Source of the DNA: Dehalococcoidia bacterium | Lineage (GTDB): Bacteria; Chloroflexota; Dehalococcoidia; Lucifugimonadales; UBA3495 | DNA length: 64,000 bases | Reading direction: 5' to 3' | NCBI GenBank assembly: GCA_963664725.1 | Contig: OY761558.1 | Location: 3,007,024 to 3,071,023, forward strand | In this document: positions 6,763 through 62,899 of the stretch, one piece after another | Layout of the letters: each line of letters opens with the position of its first letter | How positions within the stretch are numbered: the stretch's first letter is position 1 | The notes under the pieces: model-generated | Told to the model about the DNA's origin: nothing | The model's input: only the letters and a program-made list of their open reading frames with translations | The model's database searches: none | Position numbers and translations under genes: made by a program

Positions 6763-6767
6763 ACTGG

Positions 6768-9084: not shown

Positions 9085-9096
9085 TCCCCGGTCCAG

Positions 9097-10064: not shown

Positions 10065-10085
10065 CTGCGTTTCGGAGGAATGAAC

Positions 10086-19292: not shown

Positions 19293-19367
19293 GTCAAGGC
19301 CAGGAAGTAGTTTCTTAGGGGCGGGCAGCCGTCCGCCCCTAACCCCCTAGTTTACAAGGAGGAATCA

Positions 19368-20105
19368 ATGGCAAAAGTCAGTAGAATCCTGGCCCTGCTA
19401 GCGATAGTGGCGATGCTGTCTGCGCTGCCCTTGACGGCATTTGCGCAGCAGGACGTTCCCCACGTACTGCTTGGCACGGCCATGTTGAACGGCGCAACGC
19501 CGCCAGTTGACACTGAAGTCGTCGCCATGGAGGGCAACACCAAGCTCGGCTCGACCATGACCATGGCCGGCGGCAAGTTCTCACTCCAGGTGATGCGGCC
19601 TCCCGGCGGTGGTGCAGTGACCTTCATGGTTGCTGGCGTAAATGCCAGCGAGAGGCTTACCAGTTGGGAGTTCGGCAAGATTCAGCCCGACTTCAACATC
19701 AGCGCCCAGGCTTCCGGCACCGTTGGCCGCGTCGGACCTCCGGGCCCCGCAGGTCCCCCAGGCGCCGCTGGCGCCGCTGGCCCCGCCGGTCCTGCCGGCC
19801 CCCGCGGCGCTGCTGGCGCTGACGGCGCCCAGGGTCCCGCCGGCGCCGATGGTCCTGCCGGCCCCGCCGGCGCTGATGGCGCTCGCGGCCCCGTAGGCCC
19901 CCAGGGCGACCCCGGCGCGCCCGGTGTTGCGGGCCCCGCTGGCGCTGATGGCGCAGCTGGTCCCCAGGGCCCGGCTGGCCCCGCAGGCCCCGCTGGTTCA
20001 AATGGGCAGGACGCTTCCGGAACCATTGGCATAGTCGCCATCGTTATTGCAATTGTGGCGGCGATCATCGCCATAGCCATGCCCTTCGTGATGCCCAGGC
20101 GGTAG
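19368..20105 (+). CDS. Collagen-like triple-helix repeat protein with signal peptide and C-terminal TM anchor
   Basis: AAGGAGG RBS and signal peptide [26 protein letters not shown]. About 30 uninterrupted G-X-Y triplets are present ([25 protein letters not shown]...). The C-terminus [26 protein letters not shown] is a TM anchor. Confidence 0.85.
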
Positions 20106-43200: not shown

Positions 43201-43563
43201 CTATTCGGCCGAAAGCATTGCAACGCCTCGATGAAATGCCCTCTGTGCGGCTGACCGTCGGCTGTCCAGTTCTGCAGGACGTAGCATCCGATTGTAGAAG
43301 TGTCGGTGCAATTGGTCCGCTGCCGCGATGTCCGACTGCCACGTTACATTGGGCTGTTGCTCTGCCAAGTGTCTGGCTATTTGGAAATAACCGCCGTGCC
43401 AAGGGCACGGCCAGTTGTTGACCTCCGCTATCGCGAGCAGGGCTTGTGCGACCGCTCCCCACAGCAGTTCGGCCGCAATCATGGTATTGCCGCCCTGGTC
43501 GAATTCTTGGTCTGAACGTCGGGCAAACTCCCTGCTGGCCGCCTGTCGTTCAGCCGGTGTCAT
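43201..43563 (-). CDS. PaREP1/HEPN-superfamily-like small helical protein
   Basis: 120 aa. AAELLWGAVAQALLAIAEVNNW...H...ARHL...AADQLHRHFY follows the PaREP1-type pattern (E..WGA....L.A.A......H.......LH..FY) as I remember it. Its start overlaps the upstream stop by 4 bp (ATGA). Confidence 0.55.
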   Translation of the reverse strand: MTPAERQAASREFARRSDQEFDQGGNTMIAAELLWGAVAQALLAIAEVNNWPCPWHGGYFQIARHLAEQQPNVTWQSDIAAADQLHRHFYNRMLRPAELDSRRSAAQRAFHRGVAMLSAE

Positions 43564-44291
43564 AATTGCTTCCGGGCGAGTTGGTCAGCCAGATTGACAA
43601 CGGTTTTGGCGAACAGCATGGCCTCGTCCTGGGTTCGTCCGGCTTCGTCATAAGCTCCACTGCGGACATCTGTTGGCTGTCCTATTGCAGCCGCGAACGC
43701 ACTGTTAAGGTCTTGACCCTCCCGGGATGCGGACTTCAACAGCTTGTAGATGCTCTCGCCCTCGGCAGGCAATGCGCCAGTGGCTAGGCCGACCACAACT
43801 CTGAGGTCGTCGTCCTGGTCACGGTGGGGCCATCCCATCAGTGCGGCGGTGGCGGCTATGGAGCAGACAATGCCACTGCAAAGGTGCTCGGTGGCTTGGG
43901 CTCGTTGGCCTTTCTCGAAGAGGGCGGTTGCAGTGTTGAAATGGTTCTCGGTTGCTTCCGCCGCACTCTCGTGGATGGCTTGACGCCATTGGTCGCTGAC
44001 TGGTGTCGTGAATCTAGCCAGGCCCTCGTCCCAACCCAGATGCGGTTCCCCCTCTTGTTCCGCTATTGCAGTGTTAGTGGCCACTGTGCCAGCATGTCCG
44101 GCATCTGCTGCGGCATCGAACTGACCCAGCAACCCCAAAATGGGGTAGCGACCAGTGTATACAGGAATCCGTCCCTGGATGTTAGTGCACAGTCTCTGCG
44201 CTTCCGCCGGGGAGAGTTCGCCTCTGGATGTTTCAAGAACCCTGCAGGCAGCGCGTATGATCACGTCCTGGATCTCGTCACGTACTGTCAT
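43560..44291 (-). CDS. 243-aa hypothetical protein, operon partner of the PaREP1-like gene
   Basis: Good coding composition. The central part ATALFEKGQRAQATEHLCSGIVCSIAATAALMGWPHRDQDD resembles the same helical module. Confidence 0.55.
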   Translation of the reverse strand: MTVRDEIQDVIIRAACRVLETSRGELSPAEAQRLCTNIQGRIPVYTGRYPILGLLGQFDAAADAGHAGTVATNTAIAEQEGEPHLGWDEGLARFTTPVSDQWRQAIHESAAEATENHFNTATALFEKGQRAQATEHLCSGIVCSIAATAALMGWPHRDQDDDLRVVVGLATGALPAEGESIYKLLKSASREGQDLNSAFAAAIGQPTDVRSGAYDEAGRTQDEAMLFAKTVVNLADQLARKQL

Positions 44292-44480: not shown

Positions 44481-47400
44481 CTATGCCAGCTCCATGCATT
44501 GGTCAAGGAACTCGTTCACTTTCTTCGTGAGGCGCACCCAGTTCAGTGTTTCAAGCAACTGCCGCTTGAGGATTTCGGGGTCCGTTGTACGAGTCTCTGC
44601 CCCAATGAGTGCCAGCATTGCGGCGACTTCATCGGGTGGAAGCTCTTCCAACTCCCGGGGGCCGCGTTCTCGGAGGAAGACCTCGGGAGTGCCAGGCTCT
44701 CTCAGCACAAGCTGCTGTTGCCCTTCCTTCTTGAGTGGATTCGTAGCAATCAGCAACCCCTTTCTAATTGCTTCTGCGCAGGCTTGATTCAGCGCCTTAC
44801 GAGCCGGGGCCGTCAATCGCTGACTTCCGGATGCCCGGTTGATCAAGCGATAGGCGCGAATGGCAACCACAGGTCCTTCACGCACGGCAACGTCCGCCAA
44901 TAGAGAAACCAAGTGGTCCCTTTCAGCAATTCTTGGGTCAGGAACCAAGTCAGCCGGTTCCCATTCTACGTATCGTGCCAGGCGACCAGCACCGTCCGAA
45001 TCCGAGGGTATTGGCACCAGATGCGGCGGCGCAGATTGCGGATAGGGAGAGACCAGTTCTCCATCGTAATGAGGTCTGAATGGGCTGGAAGGGTCTCCCT
45101 GCTGCCATAGCATTTCTGACTCGATGGATTGCTGGTCGGCTTCATCATTGACAGGCGGTTCTGTCCGACTTGCCCCGTTTCGGCGCATCTCTTCTTCACT
45201 GTTGGGAAAGACCTGGCGGCGTTCAAGAGTCTTCCAAAGATCGGTCAGCGCCTCGTGGGGGTCGAGGCGGAATACTCCTTCACGGACCCGCCAGAATTCC
45301 CAGCCGCAGCGTTCCAGGTCGCGCTGGCGTGCGGCGTCCGCCTCGTAGCGGTCCGGGCCGTGCCAGGCATCACCATCACATTCCACGGCCAGGCTTCCGT
45401 CCAAACCCTGCACGACCAGATCGATTCTATAGTCCCCTACCTCCACCTGTGGGATTACCCGATACCCCCGGCGGGCGATGGCCAGAAAGATGTCCAACTC
45501 GAACCAGCTATCGAACGGCGCCGGAGGACTTACGAACTGGCGGTCAGCTTGCAAGGCCATCGCTTCAAGCTGGGGCACGTCCAGTCCTGACACATCTGAA
45601 ATCGCCACCCTGGGGTTGGAGCAGTACTCAAGGAGTTGATACCGTACGCATCTTGGATTCAGGTCTCCGAGAGTGGCGGTGTGGAAGAGATACATCTGGT
45701 CCCTGGCACGGCTTGCTGCCACATTGAATCGCCTCTGGGCCTCGTCGTCGGTCATCGCCGGGATGCGACGGTTCTCCTGGGGAGCCGAAACCAGGCTCAG
45801 GAACATGACATCGCGTTCGTCGCCCTGGAAGGCGTAGGCGTCCCCGCAAACGATCTGGCGGCGCTCCATTTCTTCGGGACCAAGCCGATTTATCAATAGC
45901 CTCTCGATCTCCCTGGCTTGAGCTTCACCCACCAGGCTGATGACGCCAAACGTCTTGTCTGCGTATGCCGAGTCTTCCTGAATTCGGGCAACCTCCGCGA
46001 TTATAGCTTCCGCTTCAGGCGGGTTCACCTGTCGCGAGCCAATTCCCCTCAGATAACCGTCGCTTACATGTCGGGTCAGGACCGTTGGCTCAAGACGCCC
46101 GGCTCCGTATTGCCGAAGCGGAACAAGCGGCTCGCCCTGATATGCCAGGTTGTTCGAAAACTGGATGATCTCGGGCATACATCTGAAATGCTCGCGCAGC
46201 CGGATCCGGCCACTGTACCGGATTTCCGCGAGATCAAAGAAACTCTGATTCACGCCGTATGCGTCGGCGTGTGGGAGGGCCGAGATATAACGTTCCCGGA
46301 GTTGGTTTACGTCCGCGAAGTTGACCCCGGCGTAGGTCGGCTGGATCTGCTTGTCGTCGCCAACAACCACGAGTTTCTTGGCCAGATAGGCAAGCAACAG
46401 TGCCTCGGGACCGGACTGGCTGGCCTCATCGATGATGGCGATGTCGAAGAGTTCAGACCCGGGTCTGATGGTCTCAGCCACACGGTGCAGCGGCATTACC
46501 CAGGCGGGTATCGCCGACCTGCTCTCGTTCATATGCTTTCGCGCATTGGCCCGATGTATCGGTGCATACTTCCCGGTGCCCCTTCCAATTGCACGCACCG
46601 CCTTTGACCAAGCGACCAAACTCTGGCGCTCTTGCTCCGTCATTCGATTGAAGCAGTGAGTCCAGGCTTTCTCAGCAGCCAGTTGTTCAAGCGCGCCGGC
46701 GATCCGGGCCCGGATATTCTCAAGTTCCATCCGCAACTGTTCCTCGGAACCAGGGGCGGATAGTCTCACCACCCAACTGTGCGCCCGGGAGCAGTTCCAA
46801 GCCCGCTCGAAATTCGATGCCCTTTCATCCCATATGGGGTCGCCAAATGTCTGTATGAGCCCTTGCGCCAGTTCCGGCGCGCCGTCCTGCAACCGGCGGA
46901 GCAGTGCTAACTTTCGGCTCAGCTGCGCATCGAGTTCGCGGTTTTCCACAGCCCGTCGCCTTGCGTCCCGGTATTTGGACGGGTCGCGCTCAATTACCGC
47001 GGCTCTCAGGTCCGCTGCGGACGCATCGATTCGCCCTCGAAGACTCTGCGTCCGTAGTTCTTCGAGGGTCCCATCAATCTCATTCCTTTCGAACTCGTAG
47101 AGGTGCGTGAATTCAATGGCGGCGACGGCATCGAATAGGTGGTCCAATGTTTTGGGGTCGGACCAGTCTGGTTCAATGCTTGTAGATGCGCGCCGGAGAA
47201 TCACGGACAATCTCCGGACCATAGCCAGCGCCGCGAATGCCTCATTTAGGGGCTCGCACAGGTCCCTGAGTTCGGCAACCTGATCCGCGAGGGTCAATGA
47301 CGCTATGCCATGATGGGGTGCCCAGCGTTCACGAATCCGCGTAAACTCTATCTCGGCCCGGAGCCGCGTCAGCAGGTCGCTCAAGGCATCGGGCGTCTCG

Positions 47401-49676
47401 CACAAACGTCCGCCGATCCGTAGACTTCGCACATAAGATGCTCGCTTAACGACGGGGGCGCGGAAGGGGCCGAATCCCCAACCTCCTCCGGCCCGGAGAT
47501 GACTGAGCAGGTCCCTGGCATCTCCTTCAAGTTGCTGAGGATCAACGGGTGGCTCGGGGCTGATCTGGTTCCTGTCGAGCCATTCCACATATTGTGCCGT
47601 GGATTCCACAACCCTCTTCGTATCTTCGTGCAAAAGGCGCCACGCACGCTCCAGGTCTCCTAGAACTTGCTGGGTTGCAGTCTTCGTCCAATTCAGCGGC
47701 CTGCGCTGTATTCGCTCGATAATCTGGACGACTTCACCTAACCCGTGAATGAAATCCTGGCGCTCTTGCTCAGACAGGTCCTGTAGAGCGCGATACTCTG
47801 GCCGCTGCCGGATCGACGCCTCCTCATCGTATTTACCGCGTGTCCACTCCTCGGACTGCACAGCACGATCGAACCACTCGGCGGTGGGCAAGGCATCAAT
47901 ATCAACGCTCATACATCCGTTGATTTCCCACTCCGTGATTCGCTCATTCCTGAGCAAAAACAGCAACTCCGCTAGCTCAGAAGCCGTCAAAGGAGGCTCG
48001 GCGTCTTCCGCTGCAACGGCGGGCAACCAAGACAGCTGGTCTCGCTCGCCCCGCAGACTTTCCGCGATGCGAGCCAGCGTTCCCGAGTACCCAAACTTTG
48101 CGTCGTGCTTCAGGGTCTCCCGCTCCCGCATCGAGCGGAGATCTTTGAACACTTCAGCTTGACGCCTCCGTGCTTGATCCAGGTCGTCTTCGAGCCGTTT
48201 GATCTCTCGCTCGCTGGCTCCGGGGTCCCATGTGTTTTGCCGGGTGGTGATTCCCTGGACGGACTCTTCCATTGCGAGCAACGCTTCCCGGTCGTCGCCA
48301 AGCAGTACAACGGAGAGCGGAGCAAGGTCCGGTGCCCTTTCGACGATCATGTTCCGGAGTACCTTCAGCGCGCGTACCGCGTGGCTGGTCACCAGTATGC
48401 GTTCACCTGTGGCGAGTGCGTGGCAGATCAGGTTGACGATGGTATGCGATTTACCCGTGCCCGGCGGACCCTGGACCAACACGCCCTGGTTAGTGGTCAA
48501 ACGCTCTACAATCTGCCGCTGCGCCTCATTGGCTGGGAGCGGGAAGAAAGTTTCTATGGGACCATGCCCGTTGACACTCCCGTTTGGAAAGCCGGTGGGC
48601 CGTAGATCGTCGGACACACTGATGAAGCGCGATACGCCTTCCGGAACAGGCTCGCCAGAGACAAGCTGTGCGATGATCTCCTCGAAGGCCCGGATATATG
48701 ACCGTTCCGTTCTTTGCCGCAATATGAGCGCCGGAGCCAGATGTACGTTCGGTTTTCGGTCCGCGCGCTCTGGTGGGTCGAGTGCGGCGCTGTACTCGCC
48801 TATGGCAGCTACGGAATTCACCCAACTGTTGAGCAGGTCGTCAAGCGGACCTGCATCCCACAGCGAATCGCCAAGCCCCTCCAAGTCCCCTTCTATAGAG
48901 TTCAGAACCTGCGGGTCGGGACGGTTCTGGGGGTCCAGCATGTCCTGCTCCAATGAAGGACGTGCGCCTTCACCCGCAGGAACGACCGTCAGCGTTCCAC
49001 TCGTGCTGTCGAACACGACGCTGACACGGGCGCTTACCAGGTGGCGGCGTACCGCGTGACCGTCAGGTGTTTTCCAGTTCAGGAAGCCAAGCCCGAAAAC
49101 GACCTCGAAGCTCTCTCCGAGGCGTTGCTGCCTCTGGAACATGGAGAAGACTGACGTGTAGGCCTTTTCGACCTGCTGCTCGCGCCGGTCGCGGTCTGCC
49201 CAATGCCACCACTGGTTCTCGATGTACGCGTCCCACGCCTTCTTTACGTCAGGGTAGTCTTCCAGGCTGCGGGGCGGGTCGTCATCAGCTTCACCCGGCA
49301 GGGTTTCGTACAATCCCGGAGAGTCAAGGGATGAATCGCCTAGTTGGTCGCGCCGAACCCAGGGGTCCACTAGTTCGGGCGGTTCCGGTGGTTGCGACGG
49401 GCGTGGCTTCCGAATTTCCACCCACACTTCGTCGGACGAGGAGGAGGAGAGTCTGTCCCATGCAATGCAATAGCAGCCGCCCTCCCTCGGAATTTCAGAT
49501 GCCCACAGGACCTGTCCTTCCCGCTCATATTGTGAAACATCGCGGGTGATCTTGGTACGGAGCTGCGCAAATTCCTTTAGGAAGGAATACAGGGCGATTG
49601 CGTTTTCACGCTCGGTCAAGGCAGTCCTCGGTGGTCTGGCCAGAGGGCAACGGGAGAGTCGTGTTGTCGCTTCCAC
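44481..49676 (-). CDS. 1731-aa Upf1/DNA2-like SF1 helicase fused to a DUF559/Vsr-like endonuclease and a DUF3320-like tail
   Basis: Motif I is VQGPPGTGKSHTIVNLI, motif II is AIIDEASQSGPE, and late motifs are FQGDERDVMFLSLV and FNVAASRARDQMYLF. The nuclease core is SWFELDIFLAIARRGYRVIPQVEVGDYRIDLVV...LAVECDGDAWHG...ARQRDLERCGWEFWRV. Confidence 0.85.
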   Translation of the reverse strand: MEATTRLSRCPLARPPRTALTERENAIALYSFLKEFAQLRTKITRDVSQYEREGQVLWASEIPREGGCYCIAWDRLSSSSSDEVWVEIRKPRPSQPPEPPELVDPWVRRDQLGDSSLDSPGLYETLPGEADDDPPRSLEDYPDVKKAWDAYIENQWWHWADRDRREQQVEKAYTSVFSMFQRQQRLGESFEVVFGLGFLNWKTPDGHAVRRHLVSARVSVVFDSTSGTLTVVPAGEGARPSLEQDMLDPQNRPDPQVLNSIEGDLEGLGDSLWDAGPLDDLLNSWVNSVAAIGEYSAALDPPERADRKPNVHLAPALILRQRTERSYIRAFEEIIAQLVSGEPVPEGVSRFISVSDDLRPTGFPNGSVNGHGPIETFFPLPANEAQRQIVERLTTNQGVLVQGPPGTGKSHTIVNLICHALATGERILVTSHAVRALKVLRNMIVERAPDLAPLSVVLLGDDREALLAMEESVQGITTRQNTWDPGASEREIKRLEDDLDQARRRQAEVFKDLRSMRERETLKHDAKFGYSGTLARIAESLRGERDQLSWLPAVAAEDAEPPLTASELAELLFLLRNERITEWEINGCMSVDIDALPTAEWFDRAVQSEEWTRGKYDEEASIRQRPEYRALQDLSEQERQDFIHGLGEVVQIIERIQRRPLNWTKTATQQVLGDLERAWRLLHEDTKRVVESTAQYVEWLDRNQISPEPPVDPQQLEGDARDLLSHLRAGGGWGFGPFRAPVVKRASYVRSLRIGGRLCETPDALSDLLTRLRAEIEFTRIRERWAPHHGIASLTLADQVAELRDLCEPLNEAFAALAMVRRLSVILRRASTSIEPDWSDPKTLDHLFDAVAAIEFTHLYEFERNEIDGTLEELRTQSLRGRIDASAADLRAAVIERDPSKYRDARRRAVENRELDAQLSRKLALLRRLQDGAPELAQGLIQTFGDPIWDERASNFERAWNCSRAHSWVVRLSAPGSEEQLRMELENIRARIAGALEQLAAEKAWTHCFNRMTEQERQSLVAWSKAVRAIGRGTGKYAPIHRANARKHMNESRSAIPAWVMPLHRVAETIRPGSELFDIAIIDEASQSGPEALLLAYLAKKLVVVGDDKQIQPTYAGVNFADVNQLRERYISALPHADAYGVNQSFFDLAEIRYSGRIRLREHFRCMPEIIQFSNNLAYQGEPLVPLRQYGAGRLEPTVLTRHVSDGYLRGIGSRQVNPPEAEAIIAEVARIQEDSAYADKTFGVISLVGEAQAREIERLLINRLGPEEMERRQIVCGDAYAFQGDERDVMFLSLVSAPQENRRIPAMTDDEAQRRFNVAASRARDQMYLFHTATLGDLNPRCVRYQLLEYCSNPRVAISDVSGLDVPQLEAMALQADRQFVSPPAPFDSWFELDIFLAIARRGYRVIPQVEVGDYRIDLVVQGLDGSLAVECDGDAWHGPDRYEADAARQRDLERCGWEFWRVREGVFRLDPHEALTDLWKTLERRQVFPNSEEEMRRNGASRTEPPVNDEADQQSIESEMLWQQGDPSSPFRPHYDGELVSPYPQSAPPHLVPIPSDSDGAGRLARYVEWEPADLVPDPRIAERDHLVSLLADVAVREGPVVAIRAYRLINRASGSQRLTAPARKALNQACAEAIRKGLLIATNPLKKEGQQQLVLREPGTPEVFLRERGPRELEELPPDEVAAMLALIGAETRTTDPEILKRQLLETLNWVRLTKKVNEFLDQCMELA

Positions 49677-49693
49677 GAATGGAAACCACTTGG

Positions 49694-49849
49694 CTAATTT
49701 CTGATGACGGTTTCCTTCCCATCCAGTCGCTTCAATTCGCGGGTCAAGGCCTGAACCACCAACTGAGTAAGGGAAATGCGAAGCCTGGCCGCTTCTGCCT
49801 TGGCCTCAGCATGGAGAGCTTCTGGGAGATTTAAGGTCGTCTTCTGCAT
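49694..49849 (-). CDS. Ribbon-helix-helix (CopG/Arc-like) protein immediately upstream of the giant helicase
   Basis: MQKTTLNLPEALHAEAKAEAARLRISLTQLVVQALTRELKRL follows the strand-helix-helix pattern. Its stop is 17 nt before the helicase start. Confidence 0.55.
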   Translation of the reverse strand: MQKTTLNLPEALHAEAKAEAARLRISLTQLVVQALTRELKRLDGKETVIRN

Positions 49850-50108
49850 TTCCAAGGGTCCGCTCCTAACTGGCAACAACAGTTACAGATTACCATATCG
49901 CTGTTTTTCTGTCGTCATCACTTGGAAGGGGAGGCCGGGGCAGCAGTTGAGTGCCCTCAAGCCCTTCGGCGAGTTACGGTTCTTTGCTTGTCGCTGATGT
50001 TAATGACGGCTACGCCTACGTGGCAACCGGGCCGTAGTTGCTACGCGCCGCGCCTGTACTGACACTTGCCGGCTGACGGCGGCGGCCCCCGGCTGATACG
50101 CTGGAGGC

Positions 50109-51814
50109 ATGGCATTCTCACGCGAGCGCATCCTGGACGCCCTGGCCCTGCTGCCCTTCATAGACGCGGGGGAACTGGTGATGATCCTGGGCGAAGCCCA
50201 CATTGCCATCCACCGGGGGCTTACCGCCCTGCTGGACTACGGCACCGTGGAGCGCGTCAGCCACGGCACCGCCCACCTGCCGTCGAGCAAACGGTACTAC
50301 TTGACGAGGAAAGGGATCCCCGAGGCTGCCGATGCCCTCGGCTACGACACGCCCTCGGACTTCGTGCGGCCTACCCGGCGTCCAGGGAGTGGCTCACTTT
50401 GCTCATCCGCCGGATGGACGCCGTGGCCACGGTCTACCGCGTGGCCGCGTCCCTGTCTCCCGGGACCGACGGGCTGCGGACGCAGGTGGATTTCCACCGC
50501 CGGGGCCGGTTCTACGCGGTTATCACTCTCCATAATGGCCGCAGCTTCGGGGTGGTGCGCCAGGGTCCGGCGCTCAGGCGCCGCTCCCTCTACGACCGGC
50601 TGAGGGGCATCGCCGAGTACGGGTACCGGCGCCGCCCCGGCACGGTCCTGGTGCTGACCCCCAGCGTCTGGGAACAGAAGCTGACAACCCGGTTCTGCGA
50701 GCGGCTGAACATCGACGACTGCTACGTGGCGGTGGAGTCCCGGGATGCGTTGGAGGACCGGAACCGCAACGTCTGGCGCTACACATCGTGGCTCTTTGGC
50801 AGCCTGCCCTACTCGCTGGAGTTCATCAGCACTCGCGGCCGCCCGAACCGGGGGCGTGTCACGGAAGCGCCGGAGCGCAAGCGGGCCTCGCTGCCCGACC
50901 CGCAGCGGATGGTATCGTCGGCGCCGGCCTTCGCCCTGACCCCGTCGGAAAAGCGGACGCTGGACCTGATCACCGACCACCCGATGCTTCCCCGGGAGCA
51001 CCTGGCCCGCTGGCTGGGAGTGTCCGAGGGGAGGGTCAGCCAGATGCTGCACAACCTGGTGAACGCCTGCGGCCTCGTGGAACGCCGGGGCAAGCGCGGC
51101 GACGTGCGCTACACACTGTCGGAGGAGGGCATACGCTACGTCACCCGCCGGGACCGGGCGGAACTGCCGACGACGCGGGGCATCTGGAGCACGGAGCTAA
51201 CCACGGACAAACGCGGGCGCACACGGCACCTGGGCCACCGCATCGAGACCTTGGCGCGGCAGACCAGGCACGCCGACGGTGTTACCTGGTTCCTGGCGGA
51301 GCTGGCTGCCGAAGCGCGGGCTACAACATACTCCGAGCTTACGTGGTCCATCCCCACGGCCAAGACCGACCGGGCCTTCGACTGGGGGGAGTCGGCCATC
51401 GCCCCCGACGCCGTGGGCCATCTCATTGTTGACGGTCTGCACGTTCCCTTCTACCTGGAGCACGAGCTGCGCGCCCGCCATCCCAAGGGAGTGCTGGCCC
51501 GGCTGCGGCCCTACACCCGCTACTACCACTCCAACGCTCCCGGGGAGGACATGGCCCCGTTCCCCACCACGCTATTCGTGGTAGACAACGAGGAAGTGGA
51601 GGAGACCTACGCGAGGACGGCGGCCCAGATGAACCTGATGACGCTGCCCATCCTGGTGTCATCCGCAGACACCTTGACCCGGCGCGGGCTGCTGGGGCGG
51701 TCCTGGCGTCCCCTGTGGGAGTCGCGCTCCCCGAGGCTGGCGCTGTCGGGACTGCGGGCCTACCAGTGGGACTCCCTGCGGCACCGGATGCGTCCAATAG
51801 AGGGGGTTACGTGA
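50109..51814 (+). pseudogene. Replication-relaxation family protein (two wHTH modules), frameshifted near 50365..50372
   Basis: Frame A reads MAFSRERILDALALLPFIDAGELVMILGEAHIAIHRGLTALLDYGTVERV...SDFVR. The sense then continues in the frame of ORF 50066 with AYPASREWLTLLIRRMDAVATVYRVAAS...PDAVGHLIVDGLHVPFYLEHELRARHP. There is no start codon at the junction. Confidence 0.65.
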
Positions 51815-52818: not shown

Positions 52819-53769
52819 ATGCCGCAAATAAGTGCGCTGGAACCCGTGAGCTTGAGGCAGGTATGGAGCGACGAAGCCCGTGACTTCACACCCTGGCTGA
52901 AAGACCATCTGCAAATGCTGGGGACCAAACTAAACCTCACATTGGAACTTGTGGCGGCGGAAGCCGCTTTGCCCGGAGCCGGGCGAGTGGACATCATTGT
53001 GGAACAGGCTAGCACCAAGGCCAGGGTGGTGATTGAAAACCAGTTGGAAGTATCCGACGACTCCCACTGCCTTAGGCTGTTGGGATACGCGGCCAACGCT
53101 GACGCCAACATCCTGGTTTGGGTGGCACAGGACTTCACTGACTACCACCGCAGCATCCTGTCCTGGCTCAACGAAAGTGACAACATCGCGGTGTATGCCG
53201 TGGCGGTGAGGGCTTACCGGGTGGGGGACGCCATAGCCGCCGACTTCCAGCTGGTGGTCGAACCACCGCAATCGCAACCGGGAGCAGCATCCACATTTAA
53301 CAGAGTTACCACGAACACATACTACGCCGACTTCTATCGCCCGGTGGTAGCGCAACTACGGAGGTCGGGAATGGTCCCGGTAAGCCGGGGCGGATGGAGG
53401 GGCCGGTGGCGGTCCTTCGAAACCGGACATCCCCAAGTGGTCTACGGCGCCGGGTTGAGCGAGGACAAGGCGTGGGCCTTCCTGTCCGTAAACGGTGTCC
53501 ATAACCAGTATATCTATCACACGTTGACCCAACACTGCGGCCAGATAGGTGCCGAATTGGAAGGCTGTGTAGAGTGGGTACAGGGAGAGAACGAATCCTG
53601 GGTAGGGCTGCAAACGCCAGCGGCGCTCAGCGATCCAATGATAAACCTTGAAGCCCTAGGAGAATGGATCACTGAGAATCTGTTACGCCTGAAGTCGGTA
53701 ACACAATCTTACTTGGATCAAGTGATGAACGACGGAACCTCCTCGCCCGACGACGAGGAGGCAGAATGA
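52819..53769 (+). CDS. PD-(D/E)XK-like nuclease N-domain plus DUF4268-like C-domain protein (paralog B)
   Basis: AAAGGAG RBS. Motifs: RVDIIVEQ...VVIENQLEVSDDSHCLRLLGYAA...LVWVAQDFTDYHRSILSWLN. It is colinear with 26340..27311. Confidence 0.75.
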   Translation: MPQISALEPVSLRQVWSDEARDFTPWLKDHLQMLGTKLNLTLELVAAEAALPGAGRVDIIVEQASTKARVVIENQLEVSDDSHCLRLLGYAANADANILVWVAQDFTDYHRSILSWLNESDNIAVYAVAVRAYRVGDAIAADFQLVVEPPQSQPGAASTFNRVTTNTYYADFYRPVVAQLRRSGMVPVSRGGWRGRWRSFETGHPQVVYGAGLSEDKAWAFLSVNGVHNQYIYHTLTQHCGQIGAELEGCVEWVQGENESWVGLQTPAALSDPMINLEALGEWITENLLRLKSVTQSYLDQVMNDGTSSPDDEEAE

Positions 53770-57118: not shown

Positions 57119-58956
<1,838 letters not shown>

Positions 58957-58960
<4 letters not shown>

Positions 58961-60201
58961 CGCTATCCGTTGTATCAGCAAAGCTCGGCGATCCAGGGGT
59001 GGCCTCGTTGATTCTTGGCCAGTCGCCCCCATCATCAACCTACAATGAGATTGGGGATGGCCTCCCGTTCTTTCAAGGCAAGGTGGATTTTCGGCTGCTC
59101 CACCCAATCCCACGGGTTTGGTGCACGGATGCTCGGAAATTCGCAGAACCTGGAGACATACTGGTTTCCGTCCGTGCTCCAGTCGGTGATGCCAATGTAG
59201 CTACGGTGCGTTGTGCAATTGGAAGAGGCCTTGTAGCAGTTCGCCCAGGCCCGGATAGTGACCCGTGGTTCCTCTACTTTGCCTTACTCTACTGCAAGCC
59301 GATCCTAGAGGCTAGAGCCACAGGATCAACCTTTGCCAGTGTCAATAGGAACACTCTGAACGACCTGGATATACCAATTTTCGATAGGCTGACGCAGACT
59401 GCAATTGGACGATTTTTCCGCTCACTCGTTCGCCAGATCGAACTGGAAGATCAAGCCCTTCATTCGACGCAAACCCTCAAGCACGCCGCGATGCGAACTC
59501 TGTTCACACGCGGGTTGCGGGGCGAGCCGCAGAAGGAAACGGAGATCGGGCCAGTGCCGGAAAGTTGGAGAGCCGTCAGCTTCGAGTTCGTGCGGCAGAA
59601 ACTCCAATATGGCACGTCAGTTCGGTGCACATACGATGTATCTAAGCGCCCGGTGATTCGTATCCCAAACATCGAGCCACAGCGTGTGACTGCGGACGAT
59701 CTCAAATACTGTGCGCTCACGGATGATGATGCCGCAAGATACCGACTTGAAGACGGAGACCTACTCTTCATCCGGACGAACGGAGTACTGGATCGTCTTG
59801 GATCGTGCGCTGTCTATGCCGGCTATCCTGCCGATGCTCTGTTCGCATCGTATCTGATACGCGCTAAAGTGAAGTCGGACTACGTGGTCCCACACTACGT
59901 AGCGTCCTTCTTCGGCTCTGAACTGGGAACTAGTATCGTGGCCGGGAGAGCCATTTCAGCCTCTGATGGGAAGTTCAACCTCAACACGGCCGCAATTGAC
60001 AGCCTGCTGCTCCCGTTGCCGCCTACACTCAGTGAGCAACACGAGATCATCGCCGTCCTCGATGCCATTGACCGCAAGATAGACCTGCACCGCCGCAAGC
60101 GCGCCGTGCTGGAGGAGCTGTTCAGGGCCCTGCTGCACAAGTTGATGACGGGGGAAATGCGGGTGAGGGAGTTGGAGCCCATACACGCGAAAGATATTTG
60201 A
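58957..60201 (+). CDS. hsdS: Type I R-M specificity subunit (two target-recognition domains)
   Basis: The GTG start overlaps the hsdM stop. The central and C-terminal conserved helices are [41 protein letters not shown] and [41 protein letters not shown]. Confidence 0.88.
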
Positions 60202-60213
60202 GGAGGCGGCCAA

Positions 60214-61476
60214 ATGAACCGACAAAGCACCAACTTTCTAGATATTAAGGAATGCCTAGAGCGGATTGATCAAGTGGTTAGCTTTAGTTCTAGTGTTTTG
60301 GGAAGTAGCACGGCATCACATCTAAAGCTGATACATCAGACAAGGCCCGACCTACGTATGTTTGTAGGCCTAGCTGAGCCACAAACAAACTCCACCCAAT
60401 TGGAATACTTGAATGGGTACCTGAGAATCGCACTCGCTGATCATTTGACCCCAGATCAGGACACGGTTCCAAACAGATTGGTAAGACTAGCTGGAGGGCT
60501 ATCGCACCTGTCTATCCCTGACTTTGCCAAGGGTCTTATTCGCGTAACAGCTTTGTTTGGTGCTGATCATGCAATACAAATGCTCACCGGATGGGTCGCA
60601 AACAAGCCCATACGATATTGGCAACACATTGTGCTGGATGGACTCTCTGTTGAGCAAACATTGGAGGTAAATCCGGCTCTACGGGCAATGAATCTCCCTG
60701 CCTCCTCTGACCAGCTCTCTCGTCATATCCCGCATCTTTTGCGAGGCTTCCTGCATGGAGAAGCCGTCTTTATGAACAGAGCCAAATTGCTGGTTGAGCA
60801 TGAATTTTCAATTACAGCCAAAGACGGTTCGTTGGATGAGGCCAAGCATACTTGCCTTGGCATTCCAGATTTCGCCATTGAAGAGTTTTGCCAATGCTTG
60901 GCACTGGCAAGCAATCAGTACGTTTCGTGGTTAGCGATTTGGTACGAATTAGACGTATGGGATGTGTTCGGTGGGCATGGCAGTGGTATGTCGCACCGTG
61001 ACAGTTCAAATAATGGACCGTCAGTCTTAAGCCCTGATCAACTAACTCACGCATGTAACTTGTTCGCGCTTAGTCGACCATCCGGACCATCGGGGAAACG
61101 CCTTAATATAGCCATCGCCCGTTGGCTTAATTCCAAGCGACAAAGGGCCACTCTAGTTGACCAGTGGATTGATCTTCGGATAGGACTTGAAGCACTCTAT
61201 CTGACCGACGCAAGTGGTGAGGCCCGCTTTCGTGTTTCAACTCATGGGGCATGGTATTTGGGTAAAGACTTCAGCAGTCGAAACCATTACCAAAGGACCT
61301 TGCGTGATGCGTATGACCTTGCATCGCGGGCCGTGCATTTAGGTGAAGTCAATCCTACGGAGGCTAACCGAAAGTTGCTGAGCGAAGCTCAAGACCTGTG
61401 CCGGGCGGCCATTCTCAAGCGACTAAGAGATAACGAAGAACCCAAATGGAATGAATTGATATTGGGCGGTGAATAG
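60214..61476 (+). CDS. 420-aa unknown protein embedded in the R-M operon, with a degenerate HEPN-like C-terminus
   Basis: GAGGAGG RBS, and noticeably A+T-richer than its neighbours. The C-terminus IGLEALYL...FRVSTHGAWYLG...LRDAYDLASRAVHLG resembles Apea-type HEPN helices. The usual Arg of RSxxxHG is replaced (ASRAVH). Confidence 0.6.
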   Translation: MNRQSTNFLDIKECLERIDQVVSFSSSVLGSSTASHLKLIHQTRPDLRMFVGLAEPQTNSTQLEYLNGYLRIALADHLTPDQDTVPNRLVRLAGGLSHLSIPDFAKGLIRVTALFGADHAIQMLTGWVANKPIRYWQHIVLDGLSVEQTLEVNPALRAMNLPASSDQLSRHIPHLLRGFLHGEAVFMNRAKLLVEHEFSITAKDGSLDEAKHTCLGIPDFAIEEFCQCLALASNQYVSWLAIWYELDVWDVFGGHGSGMSHRDSSNNGPSVLSPDQLTHACNLFALSRPSGPSGKRLNIAIARWLNSKRQRATLVDQWIDLRIGLEALYLTDASGEARFRVSTHGAWYLGKDFSSRNHYQRTLRDAYDLASRAVHLGEVNPTEANRKLLSEAQDLCRAAILKRLRDNEEPKWNELILGGE

Positions 61477-61486
61477 ACGGCATCTT

Positions 61487-62899
61487 ATGAAGTCCGAGCA
61501 TGTAGCAAGGCTCGCCGCCTTTGGCGAGTCCGAGACGCTGGAGTTCAAGGCCACGACCGGCACGCGCCGGGAGGCGGTCATGACGGTCTGCGCGTTTCTG
61601 AACCAGGGCGGCGGGCAGGTGTTGTTCGGTGTCACGCAGGCCGGGGCGGTCGTCGGGCAGCAGGTCAGCGACCGCACCATCGAGGAGTTGAGCGCCGAGC
61701 TTCGGCAGATCGACCCTCCGGCGTCCCCGACGGTCGAGAGGGTCCCGGTGGACGGTGGCCGTGAAGTCATCATCGTCAGCACGGGCCAGGGAGCGTCGAG
61801 GCCGTACTCCTACCGCGGCACCGCCTACCGTCGCGTCGGGAATACCACGCTGGTAATGTCCGCCGATGAGTACAATCGAATGCTCTTCGAGCGGATGCAC
61901 AGCGAGCAGCGCTGGGAGAACCAGCCCGCCGCCGGATGGTCAGTAGAGGATCTGGACGAGGCTGAGATTCGACGGACGGTTGCTGAAGCGGTCCGACGTG
62001 GACGGCTGGAGGAGCCTGTAAATAGAGATCCAACCGACCTACTGCGCGGACTCGGCCTTCTGCGTGACGGTGTGCTGCTTCGGGCGGCGGCAGTGCTGTT
62101 CGGCAGCACGGAGCGGCTGGAGTTCGAGATGCCGCAGTGCCTGCTGCGCGTCGCCCGTTTCCGGGGAATCGACCGGATGGAGTTCCTGGACAATCGCCAG
62201 TTCAACGGCAACGCCTTCACCCTCTTGGCGAACGCGGAGCGCTTTCTGCGCGACACCCTGCCCATCGCGGGGCGGTTCGAGCAGGACCGATTCGAGCGGA
62301 TCGACGAGCCTCTGTACCCGCCCCTGGCCATACGCGAGGCGTTGGCCAATGCTCTGTGCCACCGTGACTACTCCATCGGCGGCGGCTCGGTAGGCATAGC
62401 CGTCTACGACGACCGCCTGGAGGTCACATCCTCCGGTTCCCTGCACTTCGGCTTGACGCCCGAGAAGCTGTTTGGCCCGCATGAGTCGCGCCCGTGGAAC
62501 CCGTTGATCGCCCGCACTTTCTATCGGCGCGGGATCATTGAGGAGTGGGGAAGTGGGACGTTGAAGATAGCCGAGCTGACGAGCAGCGCAGGGCTTCCGG
62601 TCCCGGATATCGAGGATGACGGCGGGGCCGTCACCGTGCGCTTCCGACATGGCAGGTTCGCTCCAAGACCTACAACCAGCGGCGTGAGCGGGCCTGAAGA
62701 ACGACGGGAGACGATACTCGCCCTGCTGGAAGGCGTGGAGGACGGCTTGACGCGCCTCGAGATTCACGCGCGTCTGGGTCCTGAGGTCAGCGAACGTCAG
62801 GTGCGAACGACACTGGAAGAGTTGCGAGACCACGGCCTGGTCACGTCCACGGCTCGCGGCCCATTGACGCGATGGAGACGTGTGGTGGGTGCGGGATAG
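61487..62899 (+). CDS. AlbA_2 (Schlafen-type) DNA-binding domain plus HATPase_c_4-like plus wHTH protein
   Basis: Motifs: ESETLEFKAT...AVMTVCAFLNQGGGQVLFGV (AlbA_2), PLAIREALANALCHRDYSIGGGSVGIAVYDDRLEVTSSG (ATPase-like), and a C-terminal wHTH. This is a frequent passenger in type I R-M loci. Confidence 0.75.
   Translation: MKSEHVARLAAFGESETLEFKATTGTRREAVMTVCAFLNQGGGQVLFGVTQAGAVVGQQVSDRTIEELSAELRQIDPPASPTVERVPVDGGREVIIVSTGQGASRPYSYRGTAYRRVGNTTLVMSADEYNRMLFERMHSEQRWENQPAAGWSVEDLDEAEIRRTVAEAVRRGRLEEPVNRDPTDLLRGLGLLRDGVLLRAAAVLFGSTERLEFEMPQCLLRVARFRGIDRMEFLDNRQFNGNAFTLLANAERFLRDTLPIAGRFEQDRFERIDEPLYPPLAIREALANALCHRDYSIGGGSVGIAVYDDRLEVTSSGSLHFGLTPEKLFGPHESRPWNPLIARTFYRRGIIEEWGSGTLKIAELTSSAGLPVPDIEDDGGAVTVRFRHGRFAPRPTTSGVSGPEERRETILALLEGVEDGLTRLEIHARLGPEVSERQVRTTLEELRDHGLVTSTARGPLTRWRRVVGAG

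Follow-up and report, generated by a model that had tools for sequence, protein, structure and literature searches.

The closest described relatives of the gene presented here are the anti-phage proteins Hhe and ProA. Both follow one design, in which an N-terminal domain precedes a Upf1-like motor split by a helical arm, followed by a Vsr nuclease and a tail of the winged helix-turn-helix (wHTH) type. The hhe gene is a single-gene system directed against lambda, T3, T7 and PhiV-1, and a point mutant of its nuclease is inactive (10.1101/2022.06.16.496414). Phage DNA-metabolism genes act as its triggers (10.1101/2024.10.10.617714). The Hhe motor has been classed as SF1_Upf1, as have those of the Mokosh proteins MkoA and MkoC (PMC10925250). 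ProA, a giant single polypeptide, is represented by the NCBIfam model NF058533, which corresponds to the PADLOC candidate PDC-S37; the Raoultella plasmid protein WP_004118855.1 is an example. The literature search yielded background on hhe only, and no paper describing the ProA name or the helicase–nuclease family treated below, the members of which are currently annotated merely as "AAA domain-containing" or "DUF3320 domain-containing".

The gene was found in a window of 64,000 nucleotides, which is the whole stretch of DNA analysed, from a Dehalococcoidia bacterium (contig OY761558.1). All features of the locus lie on the minus strand. As the first-pass annotation had stated, one uninterrupted open reading frame of 5.2 kb is present. 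It extends from a GTG start over positions 44481..49676 and contains the helicase motifs GPPGTGKSH, IIDEASQ and NVAASRARD. The length of 1731 aa given there holds for this maximal frame. The closest homologues (87-92% identical), however, all begin with "MTERENA", corresponding to the TTG codon at 49619, which has GAGGA just upstream; the probable product therefore comprises 1712 aa, encoded by 44481..49619. The accompanying claim that no other very long gene in the region has stayed intact does not hold, since a 1452-aa fn3-containing frame at 14934-19292 is intact as well.

The motor belongs to the Upf1-like SF1B helicases, the motifs I, II, III, V and VI of which are all present, in order, and invariant in the family alignment. 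The first part of the RecA-like domain 1A (48267..48542) contains the Walker A motif GPPGTGKSH with K409 and is matched by Pfam AAA_11, AAA_30 and AAA_19 (aa 383-523); residues G403 to H411 are invariant across the family. The rest of domain 1A, with motif II (IIDEASQ) and motif III (VVVGDDKQ), lies together with domain 2A at 45642..46508 (Pfam AAA_12, aa 1145-1330). Domain 2A carries motifs IV to VI, including NVAASRARD. In this part of the protein, D1083, E1084, Q1284, G1285, R1288 and S1322 are invariant in the alignment, and R1323 is nearly so. Sequence matches in the PDB are confined to the motor and comprise Upf1, Sen1, IGHMBP2 and DNA2 (E 3e-12 to 2e-10), while the IGHMBP2 family model TIGR00376 is matched below its cut-off.

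The motor is followed by a Vsr-type (MTES_1575/DUF559) endonuclease domain at 45219..45524. Pfam MTES_1575 recognises it at aa 1392-1484 with 95 bits (cut-off 38) and is matched by all 26 aligned family members; the match to DUF559 is weak (19 bits). Its residues D1419, E1432, D1434 and H1439 are invariant. The C-terminal tail (44484..44981, aa 1566-1731) is DUF3320-like. Pfam DUF3320 has no match in the window protein and matches weakly in 10 of the 26 family members, and the models of ProA and PDC-S37 run almost to their ends over the tail (position 1901 of 1903 and 1530 of 1550, at aa 1713 and 1728 of the protein). DUF3320 is known to overlap two wHTH domains (PMC3710099), and the tail probably consists of tandem wHTH domains. 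Many homologues of ~1450-1550 aa cover ~85% of the query and apparently lack it. Pfam revealed no domain of RNase type, either in the window protein or in the family members. Taken from end to end, the order proposed at first, namely an N-terminal region without assignment, a Upf1/DNA2-type SF1 helicase, a Vsr-type nuclease and a DUF3320-like tail, is borne out, for the tail by way of the ProA and PDC-S37 alignments.

The window protein resembles Hhe and ProA in architecture, with homology that extends from the Walker A motif into the tail, and stands far from both in score, reaching 147-230 bits on the Hhe, ProA and PDC-S37 models against curated cut-offs of 1500-2000. ProA is matched with 218 bits, ~7x below its equivalog cut-off of 1500, and PDC-S37 with 215 bits. 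A true ProA scores 2224 bits on the former model and 1181 bits on the latter. The same two models are the top NCBIfam and PADLOC matches in each of the 26 aligned family members, and PDC-S37 is also the best result of the PADLOC-type scan that had been suggested for this locus. Like ProA, the window protein is a giant single polypeptide with a Walker A motif, a long insertion, motif II and a second RecA domain, and a Vsr/MTES_1575 nuclease; ProA possesses a DUF3320 tail, to the last positions of which its model aligns here, and a distant family member aligns to the model from the Walker A motif through the nuclease. The two differ in the stretch before the Walker A motif, which measures ~640 aa in ProA and ~385 aa here, and no RHH (ribbon-helix-helix) gene is annotated beside the ProA example.

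The Hhe model (NF042953/PDLC02194) yields 147 bits for the window protein, compared with a cut-off of 2000 and 2731 bits for a true Hhe; the best E-value among the 26 family members is 2.3e-47. A profile comparison with hhalign gives 99.8% probability and 31% identity over 444 columns, covering the C-terminal part of domain 1A, domain 2A and the nuclease. Both are encoded by a single gene (hhe occurring on plasmids and islands) and fuse a Upf1-like SF1 helicase to a Vsr-type endonuclease, in which the catalytic glutamate is kept within (I/V)ECDG, the Hhe motif being IECDG. Hhe differs in its insertion of ~940 aa, as opposed to ~590 aa here. For its N-terminal DUF4011 domain, Pfam (PF13195) gives a match in 0 of the 26 family members at E<=0.1. 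Hhe and ProA cross-score with 825-1131 bits on each other's models, so this family is much more remote from both than they are from one another. Because its scores fall far below the Hhe and ProA cut-offs, the family represents a separate, unnamed branch, and because the equivalog thresholds are missed about ten-fold, the function of Hhe or ProA cannot simply be transferred to it. Membership in Hhe or ProA was accordingly rejected (147 vs 2000 and 218 vs 1500 bits for the whole protein).

The suggestion that the gene might be Hhe- or Mokosh-like in identity fails for Mokosh too. The likeness is confined to the C-terminal part of the Upf1-like motor (aa ~1073-1343), where the PADLOC models score 130 bits for MkoC and 98 bits for MkoA; the SF1 motors of Mokosh and Hhe belong to one helicase subfamily. 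Nothing in Mokosh corresponds to the N-terminal region, the tail or the Vsr nuclease. The effector of Mokosh is a nuclease of the PLD family. Pfam found no PLD domain in the window protein, and ~80 loci showed no conserved partner, so Mokosh membership was dismissed as well.

The two parts of the protein that depart most from the described relatives are the N-terminal domain and the helical insertion. The former (48543..49619; aa 20-378 in the numbering of the maximal frame) spans ~360 aa and is conserved across phyla in the family alignments. A profile search with it retrieved 2587 clusters at 50% identity, and among the 150 matches listed it always occupies the N-terminus, the full-length ones measuring ~1450-1990 aa. 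An AF2 model (pLDDT 84.9, pTM 0.74) found no significant counterpart in the PDB by Foldseek (best E 0.44); its best match in BFVD is a phage-metagenome "AAA domain protein", which is marginal (E 8e-3, TM 0.21). Compared with the N-terminal profile of Hhe by hhalign, the domain gives weak alignments of 50-64 columns with a probability of 4.8% and then 29.6%, centred on a GLGFLxW motif that lies at an equal distance from Walker A in both proteins. The probability for ProA is 1.1%, although a "GxxxLxxGFLxW" motif is common to both. Given the weak match to a DUF4011 core, this family-specific domain is possibly a divergent DUF4011-like module.

The insertion of ~590 aa (46509..48266, aa 471-1056) splits domain 1A and is all-alpha in its AF2 model (pLDDT 90.1, nearly all residues helical). 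Foldseek against the PDB gives no significant match, only generic coiled coils including Rad50, SMC and MukB (TM ~0.1, best E 0.012), and in other family members the C-terminal part of the insertion aligns to the PDC-S37 and ProA models.

The gene forms part of a mobile cassette of ~5.5 kb, composed of a promoter, a small putative repressor gene of the RHH type and the giant helicase–nuclease gene. Its boundaries at 44487 and 50014 are the points where blastn homology to three close relatives (L081, L082 and L083; 89-93% nucleotide identity) begins and ends. The flanks beyond these points differ from those of the relatives, save for a 3' block that is common to the window and L081, in which it follows an insertion of ~700 nt. 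With its sharp edges and unrelated flanks, the cassette is a mobile unit. The intact promoter–RHH–helicase unit is found again in the close relatives, where it adjoins CBASS and transposases, GmrSD and an integrase, or a prophage. Purifying selection acts on both genes, the dN/dS ratio being 0.03-0.21 for the RHH gene and, as determined against three relatives, ~0.2 overall for the helicase–nuclease gene. Within the latter, the motor and nuclease range from 0.05 to 0.10 (first part of domain 1A, 0.05; nuclease, 0.08; rest of 1A with 2A, 0.10), and the N-terminal domain and the insertion evolve faster than these catalytic cores (0.25-0.29, the insertion at 0.29).

The RHH gene (49694..49855) encodes a putative autorepressor or controller. 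The small gene itself had been recognised in the first-pass annotation, with 51 aa and a gap of 17 nt to the next frame; its conserved start is, however, the TTG at 49855, as the ATG at 49849 is replaced by ACT in relatives, which results in 53 aa and leaves 74 nt between its stop codon and the TTG at 49619. The protein is a bare RHH core with no toxin-binding extension. Its match to Pfam HicB, in the C-terminal RHH part of that model, is weak (24 bits, cut-off 21), and its match to the NCBIfam model YlcI_YnfO_N lies below the cut-off. An RHH gene is present at identical spacing in L081, L082 and L083 and occurs in L088 also; tight linkage to the helicase–nuclease gene is seen in five loci. 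It is missing in three relatives at 63-66% identity and has no upstream copy in ~60 loci with a locatable gene start, out of 80 reference-genome loci. Among 135 reading frames upstream of distant members, an HMM search revealed no credible RHH protein.

Upstream of the RHH gene lies a conserved element, GACAGAAAAACAGCGATATGGTA (49891..49913), which surfaced only in the cross-locus alignment and had been missed by a repeat search and a generic promoter scan. In it, a -35-like hexamer (acGACA) is set apart by a 17-nt spacer from an extended -10 region (TGgTAATCT), and tandem half-sites, ACAG-N5-ACAG, are present; it would serve as promoter and operator. From the end of the element to the RHH start there are 35 nt (28-36 nt in all RHH loci), and it occurs once in the window, where 0 copies are expected by chance. 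In 99 loci it is found once per RHH locus and nowhere else, and it is conserved in every RHH-bearing locus regardless of the downstream cargo, which is either a type II methyltransferase (MTase_II) or the helicase–nuclease. A motif scan of metagenomes gave 108 matches; as only 3 of them precede an RHH gene, most are attributable to chance. Matches on viral contigs had no RHH gene downstream in any of eight cases.

In the methyltransferase cassettes, which carry a convergent reading frame of ~790 aa, a related RHH protein (66-75% identical) and the same upstream motif stand at the head. This double use points to a portable controller as the role of the RHH protein, as opposed to an antitoxin. 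Judged by its sequence organisation, the unit fits the pattern of a restriction–modification (R-M) controller, in which the regulator comes first, has its operator in its own promoter and heads several restriction-type cassettes. With the C proteins of R-M systems it has in common a small DNA-binding protein encoded first and an operator, predicted in this case, that overlaps its own promoter; it differs in that the controlled gene is a helicase–nuclease without a methyltransferase. Classical C proteins, moreover, are helix-turn-helix proteins and not RHH proteins.

The family as a whole comprises ~2,600 clusters at 50% identity and is distributed patchily over very distant phyla, from Acidobacteriota to archaea. 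Members occur on 89 plasmid records, and in some genomes copies of the gene are broken by IS elements or frameshifts. A search of 50,697 phage genomes found no member, a result counted neither for nor against a role in defence. Clustering of the neighbours in ~80 loci showed no neighbour family in more than 5 of them, hence no conserved partner, and no conserved synteny with genes of repair or replication. On Acinetobacter plasmids, including those of A. baumannii and A. pittii, a distant member comes immediately downstream of BREX-1 pglZ-brxL; a paper on this BREX system (PMC9122589) is silent on the adjoining gene. Other relatives are found near HicAB, TIR or RadC genes or within an integrase island, and one at 63% identity sits amid housekeeping genes. 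The 142 immediate neighbours of distant members are a mixture that includes defence-type matches (GajB/UvrD, HmaB, type I and II methyltransferases, Mrr, AriA and ParE) as well as metabolic AMP-binding, CoA-transferase and LacI genes.

Being distantly related to Hhe and ProA, which are anti-phage proteins, the gene in all likelihood adds to the bacterial immune genes of known types without representing a new one. The earlier proposal of a candidate single-protein defence system retains its substance, through this homology, the lack of a conserved partner and the occurrence of relatives beside CBASS, GmrSD, BREX, TIR, toxin–antitoxin genes, integrases and prophages, although the gene equals no named system. 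It is probable that the locus constitutes a two-gene mobile immunity cassette, in which a helicase–nuclease effector acts on the invader and an RHH protein is the controller. The N-terminal domain would then be the likely recognition or regulatory part of the effector. By analogy with Hhe and ProA, the ATP-driven SF1B motor, its first RecA domain split by the helical arm, would load on the DNA of an invading phage or plasmid or on its replication intermediates and move in the 5'->3' direction, placing the nuclease to cut, and the wHTH-like tail would bind DNA. The invader would be destroyed, or the infected cell would be halted if the effector were over-activated. Binding of the RHH protein to the tandem ACAG sites overlapping its own promoter would keep transcription of the cassette low and controlled. 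C proteins give such control to R-M systems that enter a new host.

The substrate could be RNA, since motors of the Upf1 type can use this as well as DNA; Upf1, Sen1 and IGHMBP2 work on RNA or RNA–DNA hybrids. An immune function of another kind can accordingly be envisaged, in which the motor senses or unwinds phage RNA or R-loops, the nuclease cuts indiscriminately and the cell dies. Co-expression of hhe with a phage gene is toxic, and several phage DNA-metabolism genes are indirect triggers (10.1101/2024.10.10.617714), as such a mode of action would lead one to expect. Vsr-type nucleases and wHTH tails are nevertheless DNA-directed (PMC3710099), and Pfam found no RNase-type domain in the family, which makes this version unlikely, even though the sequence by itself does not tell abortive infection apart from a direct attack on the invader's DNA. 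The matches to the motors of DNA2, Upf1, Sen1 and IGHMBP2, the role of Vsr as a repair nuclease and the housekeeping or metabolic neighbours of some relatives would also suit a DNA2- or AddAB-like enzyme of repair, recombination or replication that serves the host or maintains a conjugative element. A gene of that type would hardly be expected to show the patchy distribution over very distant phyla, the plasmid-borne and disrupted copies or the sharply bounded cassette in unrelated contexts, nor to lack conserved synteny with repair or replication genes. Its nearest characterised relatives are anti-phage proteins, and its N-terminal domain and insertion evolve faster than the catalytic cores. 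A housekeeping role is therefore quite improbable.

The pairing with an RHH gene could further be taken for a toxin–antitoxin or addiction module, the RHH protein neutralising a helicase–nuclease toxin and so stabilising the host mobile element. RHH proteins are a common antitoxin type, the match here is to a HicB-type model, the two genes are tightly linked in their five loci, and the region is a mobile element with IS elements and TraC and Replic_Relax genes. Against this stand the bare DNA-binding fold of the 53-aa protein and the fact that most of the family is not paired with it, as well as the methyltransferases behind the same RHH gene and operator, which are not toxins. The examined Hhe and ProA relatives, too, stand alone on plasmids with no antitoxin-like neighbour annotated, hhe being a single-gene system (10.1101/2024.10.10.617714). 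An addiction module is thus very unlikely, and the immunity cassette with an RHH controller remains the preferred interpretation.

In a broader sense, the family may, as a tentative view held with somewhat less than even confidence, form a third, deep-branching lineage within the Hhe/ProA superfamily that is widespread and unnamed, has a structurally new N-terminal domain and a helical arm as its recognition module and includes one clade that captured a portable RHH–operator controller, elsewhere in use in type II R-M cassettes. If so, establishment control of the C-protein type would extend beyond R-M to helicase–nuclease immunity genes, and the RHH–operator unit would be a compact example of a regulatory part reused across immunity cassettes. 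Should the family prove active, a great number of proteins from a wide range of taxa, including the BREX-adjacent copies on Acinetobacter plasmids, would gain a function, the Hhe/ProA design would be seen to tolerate complete replacement of its N-terminal module, and the sensor would be sought first of all in this module. Bacterial immunity in its general outline would look the same, a known class being extended.

Downstream of the cassette, a PaREP1/HEPN-like gene pair had been reported. Only the 120-aa reading frame at 43201-43563 matches PaREP1, barely above the cut-off (25.5 vs 24.4 bits); the 243-aa frame matches no family and has no similarity to it. The pair was excluded from the system, as it is missing from two of the three close relatives (L082 and L083), is separated from the cassette by extra genes in L081 and consists of mutually unrelated proteins. 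In the 80 reference-genome loci, no homologues were found of the RHH, 243-aa, PaREP1-like, Replic_Relax and PDC-S11 proteins of the window. In addition to PDC-S11, TraC and Replic_Relax, the window carries a type I R-M system, a Schlafen/AlbA2 ATPase, Uma2 and several IS elements.

The helicase–nuclease gene lies on the minus strand of the window, where the ORF listing gives an uninterrupted ORF at 44481..49676 with a GTG start and 1731 aa, and a small ORF upstream of it that ends at 49694. The ORF listing and Pfam bear out the first-pass annotation of a single large ORF with helicase and nuclease, and every motif string quoted there is found in it. Both this gene and the upstream ribbon-helix-helix (RHH) gene are real, but their starts have to be moved. 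The N-terminus of the three closest homologues (87–92% identical), 'MTERENA', corresponds to TTG 49619, a start conserved in all three, and GAGGA sits 5 nt before it. Since this start, its Shine–Dalgarno sequence and the 74-nt spacer are conserved in the DNA of relatives, the product most likely comprises 1712 aa. The 1731-aa ORF numbering is kept here; subtracting 19 gives the 1712-aa numbering. The ATG previously chosen for the RHH gene is ACT in relatives; its conserved start is TTG 49855, which yields 53 aa.

Comparison by blastn with three close-relative loci (L081, L082 and L083) revealed 89–93% nucleotide identity with limits at window 44487–50014, one ~160 nt before the RHH start and the other 6 nt past the stop codon of the helicase gene. 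Outside these limits the loci are unrelated, save for a downstream block common to the window and L081. Homology confined to this interval between unrelated flanks argues that promoter, RHH gene and helicase–nuclease gene form one discrete cassette. The L082 copy is accompanied by a CBASS-like operon (SMODS, TIR-SAVED, ThiF) and three transposases, and the L083 copy by GmrSD, a ResIII helicase and an integrase. The first-pass annotation had noted a PaREP1/HEPN-like pair immediately downstream of the helicase. This pair, at window 43201–44291 (-), consists of a 243-aa ORF without family assignment and an overlapping 120-aa ORF that barely passes PaREP1. It recurs in L081 alone (L081:13836–15281, 88% nucleotide identity), set apart from the helicase gene by ~700 nt of extra DNA, and is an independent two-gene unit; an IS630 element is also among the neighbours of the L081 cassette. 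A Replic_Relax/MarR gene adjoins the cassette at window 50066–51814 (+). Its 76%-identical homologue at L083:1–1454 is 6 kb more distant, and genes for GmrSD, a TPR protein and an ADP-ribosylglycohydrolase separate it from the cassette. This arrangement points to a hotspot for variable cargo within a related mobile element.

The protein motor fits an SF1B Upf1-like helicase, because a sequence-profile search of the PDB recovered the motors of Upf1, Sen1, IGHMBP2 and DNA2 alone (E 3e-12 to 2e-10). Hhe, MkoA and MkoC have been placed in the same subfamily by a published phylogeny (PMC10925250). Pfam assigns AAA_11 to aa 383–523 plus a second stretch further on, AAA_12 to aa 1145–1330, and the Vsr-type nuclease family MTES_1575 to aa 1392–1484 (95 bits, cut-off 38); of the earlier Vsr/DUF559 assignment, the Vsr type stands and the DUF559 match is weak. 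Across 26 aligned full-length relatives, whose identity falls to 44% and which come from Acidobacteriota, Gammaproteobacteria and one Aenigmarchaeota archaeon, conservation extends over the whole length (mean column identity 57%). Among the invariant residues are Walker A (G403–H411, with K409), motif II (D1083-E1084-A-S), motif III (G1106-D1107), Q1284-G1285-x-x-R1288, motif VI (N1318-V-A-A-S1322; R1323 nearly so) and the nuclease residues D1419, E1432, D1434 and H1439.

An insertion of ~590 aa interrupts RecA domain 1A between Walker A and motif II. This helical insert was modelled with confidence by AlphaFold2 from a 15-sequence alignment as nearly all alpha-helical (pLDDT 90.1), and Foldseek against the PDB returned nothing beyond generic coiled-coil arms, for example of Rad50, SMC and MukB (best E 0.012, TM ~0.1). 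The N-terminal domain (N-domain, aa 20–378; pLDDT 84.9, pTM 0.74) also models well; it comprises a long helix and, after it, a three-stranded sheet with helical elements. Among solved structures it has no neighbour (best E 0.44, TM <=0.12), and BFVD yields a single marginal match, to a 440-aa 'AAA domain protein' of phage-metagenome origin (E 8e-3, TM 0.21). Behind a poorly conserved linker, the tail keeps EGP, R and P-x-x-E positions. Pfam DUF3320 matches weakly in 10 of the 26 relatives; this family overlaps two wHTH domains beside the 'novel Vsr-REase' of MTES_1575 (Anantharaman et al. 2013, PMC3710099). Many homologues of ~1450–1550 aa align to just ~85% of the query, which suggests that they lack the tail and that it is optional.

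Whether the protein equals a named system such as Hhe had been left to a search. It reaches 147 bits on the NCBIfam model of Hhe (cut-off 2000 bits) and 218 bits on that of ProA (cut-off 1500 bits), an order of magnitude below both curated thresholds, and 215 bits on PADLOC PDC-S37. Two control proteins calibrate these scores. A Klebsiella plasmid Hhe obtains 2731 bits on Hhe and 1131 bits on ProA, and the Raoultella plasmid protein WP_004118855.1, which its scores mark as a true ProA, obtains 825, 2224 and 1181 bits on Hhe, ProA and PDC-S37, respectively. As the latter matches PDC-S37 end to end, this model is essentially ProA. With cross-scores of 825–1131 bits, Hhe and ProA are close cousins, and the window family appears to be a third branch, much more distant from them than they are from each other. 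All 26 aligned relatives score alike (best E-values 2e-75 for ProA and 2e-47 for Hhe). On further PADLOC models the window protein scores 130 bits (MkoC), 107 bits (Hhe) and 98 bits (MkoA). Its match to these models and to those above is mainly confined to the C-terminal part, starting at ~aa 1050, with one further short segment; ProA and PDC-S37 align across the tail up to their final positions.

True homology to Hhe and ProA is nevertheless indicated by the hhalign comparison of the 26-relative alignment with Hhe (probability 99.8%, 444 columns covering helicase domains 1A-C and 2A and the nuclease) and by the ProA/PDC-S37 alignments, which reach further upstream: in more distant family members they extend into the helical insert, and in an Acinetobacter member they begin at Walker A. 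The N-terminal module, unlike that of Hhe, is not recognisably DUF4011, and Pfam DUF4011 matched no family member examined. The N-domain aligns weakly with a 102-sequence profile of the Hhe N-terminus (hhalign probability 4.8%); a 251-sequence N-domain profile raises this to a still weak 29.6% (pairwise E 6e-4), over one element. It is always this element that aligns, 'QRQQRLGE-FEVVFGLGFLNW...R' in the window family and 'IEEtGaNILYLalGFLEW...R' in Hhe, at equal distance from Walker A in both; ProA aligns there with 'LEEGGANTLFLAVGFLKWKK'. A divergent DUF4011-like core is a probable, though tentative, reading of this match.

A search of 1.84 billion cluster representatives with the N-domain profile gave 2587 clusters at E<=1e-3, of which 684 pass E<=1e-30. 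Among the 150 matches listed, the N-domain is always N-terminal, full-length proteins measure ~1450–1990 aa and the shorter entries are apparently fragments. Beyond the taxa of the 26-relative alignment, homologues occur at reference-genome loci of Actinomycetota, Deinococcota, Planctomycetota and an ANME-2 archaeon. Public databases name the proteins 'AAA family ATPase', 'DUF559 domain-containing protein', 'DUF3320 domain-containing protein' or 'very-short-patch-repair endonuclease'; they represent a large unnamed sister family of Hhe/ProA. Syntenic Streptomyces proteins of ~1900–2100 aa (L048, L050, L061, L062), with conserved AMP-binding-enzyme neighbours, match the C-terminal helicase–nuclease part alone (query aa ~890–1510) and appear to differ in architecture.

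Pfam HicB matches the RHH protein (24 bits, cut-off 21) solely through its C-terminal, DNA-binding RHH portion, and the match to NCBIfam YlcI_YnfO_N lies under the cut-off. Its 53 aa (KTTLNLPE, helix, S, helix) fit a bare RHH fold. The RHH family is small (21 clusters) and extends beyond helicase–nuclease cassettes. Members 66–75% identical to the window RHH stand directly upstream of a type II N6/N4 DNA methyltransferase gene in three independent contexts (L092/L093, L094, L098), each with a convergent, unannotated ~790-aa ORF that is presumably the endonuclease. In L095–L097 the RHH gene precedes a truncated-looking methyltransferase-like ORF, in L145 a more divergent copy precedes another methyltransferase, and in L108 and L150 a divergent RHH is followed by a 198-aa protein matching PADLOC 'cll' and then a methyltransferase-like ORF.

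The upstream DNA of the RHH loci is unrelated apart from one conserved block, TTGACAGAAAtACAG-NN-ATATGGTAT, which reads acGACAGAAAAACAGcGATATGGTAa in the helicase cassettes and ends 28–36 nt before the RHH start. It can be parsed into a putative -35 hexamer and an extended -10 separated by a 17-nt spacer, and it contains tandem ACAG-N5-ACAG half-sites. Across 99 loci, the degenerate pattern occurs exactly once per locus in eight RHH-bearing loci and nowhere else; the L088 block deviates at one position. The window contains it once, at 49891–49913 (-), with 0 expected by chance (100 shuffles). The element GACAGANWWACAGNNATATNKTA lies at L092:6946–6968, L094:6946–6968, L098:4331–4353, L145:1385–1407 and L108:603–625, the last heading the 'cll'-like nuclease cassette. 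In a metagenome collection, an RHH gene followed only 3 of 108 matches, so the pattern alone is not specific at that scale. RHH and putative operator/promoter can be read as a portable controller attached to varied restriction-type cargo, this helicase–nuclease included, and analogous to the C-proteins of R-M systems. As far as we found, such an RHH–operator controller, shared with R-M cassettes, is undescribed; it would be a modest addition rather than a new principle.

Beyond the close relatives, a 65%-identical homologue with RHH (L088) adjoins phage terminase, portal and Mu-F genes. Three homologues without RHH (62–66% identical) lie with a transposase, HicAB, RadC, SNF2 and a TIR protein (L089), in an integrase/AlpA island (L090), and with transketolase and isocitrate dehydrogenase genes (L091). 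A distant 1576-aa member on the A. pittii plasmid NZ_CP069540 (L087:1–8356; N-domain against the window family, hhalign probability 77.5%) directly follows BREX-1 pglZ-brxL and precedes an AAA ATPase and then Phd/YefM and RelE/ParE toxin–antitoxin genes. Similar copies occur in ~20 Acinetobacter plasmid records, including A. baumannii AYE NC_010404.1, and may represent a clinically relevant, uncharacterised candidate defence gene. The N-domain was found in 89 plasmid records and in 0 of 50,697 phage genomes. Across 80 reference-genome loci, each neighbour family is present in 5 at most, and the protein has no obligatory partner. The 142 immediate neighbours are heterogeneous in family counts: defence-type genes (GajB/UvrD-like 3; HmaB, type I methyltransferase, type II methyltransferase, Mrr, AriA and ParE 2 each) occur, and metabolic genes likewise.

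The view that the gene is under selection is upheld by Nei–Gojobori dN/dS among the four close cassettes (dS ~0.2–0.35): values of 0.20–0.24 for the helicase–nuclease, with 0.03–0.21 for RHH, imply that it is maintained by selection. Within the protein, dN/dS is 0.05 in the Walker A part of domain 1A, 0.08 in the nuclease, 0.10 in the rest of the motor, 0.22 in the tail, 0.25 in the N-domain, 0.29 in the helical insert and 0.48 in the linker. The non-catalytic modules thus evolve fastest, as would be expected of recognition surfaces in conflict systems. Decay occurs elsewhere: an IS701 transposase splits the member on the Deinococcus actinosclerus plasmid CP029776.1 (L085:7757–14070), whose N-terminal fragments carry separate hypothetical-protein annotations, and several MAG copies are broken, which assembly errors may explain.

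Every catalytic motif of the ATPase and the nuclease is intact, and purifying selection acts on them all. We consider it rather likely that the whole is an immune cassette, its protein predicted to work like Hhe/ProA, with which it shares ancestry. The hhe system consists of one gene, which encodes helicase and Vsr nuclease domains, protects against lambda, T3, T7 and PhiV-1 and is inactivated by the nuclease point mutation E1731A (10.1101/2022.06.16.496414). Its triggers include several T7 DNA-metabolism genes and one Bas63 gene (10.1101/2024.10.10.617714), and phages encode inhibitors of it (10.1101/2024.04.14.589459). By analogy, the N-domain and helical arm might sense or select the target or auto-inhibit the enzyme; the motor would move 5'->3' along single-stranded stretches in DNA that is invading or replicating, the nuclease would cut, the wHTH tail could contribute to DNA binding and RHH may limit expression of the cassette. 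These individual steps are much less sure than the immune explanation as a whole, and an RNA-directed or abortive variant of the mechanism is conceivable.

Were the cassette a toxin–antitoxin module, RHH would be the antitoxin; this is unlikely because RHH is minimal, dispensable across the family and shared with methyltransferase cassettes, which the same RHH–operator unit heads. Its presence on restriction-type cargo instead lends guilt-by-association support to an immune function of the helicase–nuclease. A housekeeping role in repair is likewise unlikely, given the patchy distribution, the mobility of the gene, its plasmid copies and the absence of conserved synteny.

The window is a foreign, mobile region. 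Its GC content is 0.69–0.71 at 1–14000 and 0.52–0.64 beyond ~14 kb, with an exception of 0.67 at 50–52 kb; the low-GC stretch and a TraC/VirB4-like ATPase at 1076–3328 (-) are consistent with a large acquired or conjugative region. IS110, IS630 and IS4 transposases, Uma2 and Replic_Relax are also encoded. At 52819–53769 (+), 3 kb from the cassette, a 316-aa protein strongly matches the PADLOC candidate system PDC-S11 over its full length (190 bits), which makes its gene a further defence candidate. The stretch 57119–62899 (+) encodes a type I R-M HsdM with an N-terminal HTH_3 domain, HsdS, an unannotated 420-aa ORF (60214–61476) and a Schlafen/AlbA2 + HATPase_c_4 + HTH protein (61469–62899); no HsdR was seen between the HsdM/HsdS stretch and the window end. 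The helicase–nuclease gene had been described as the only very long gene left intact here, but a 1452-aa fibronectin type III ORF in 14934–20105 (+) is intact too and is followed by a 245-aa collagen-repeat protein.
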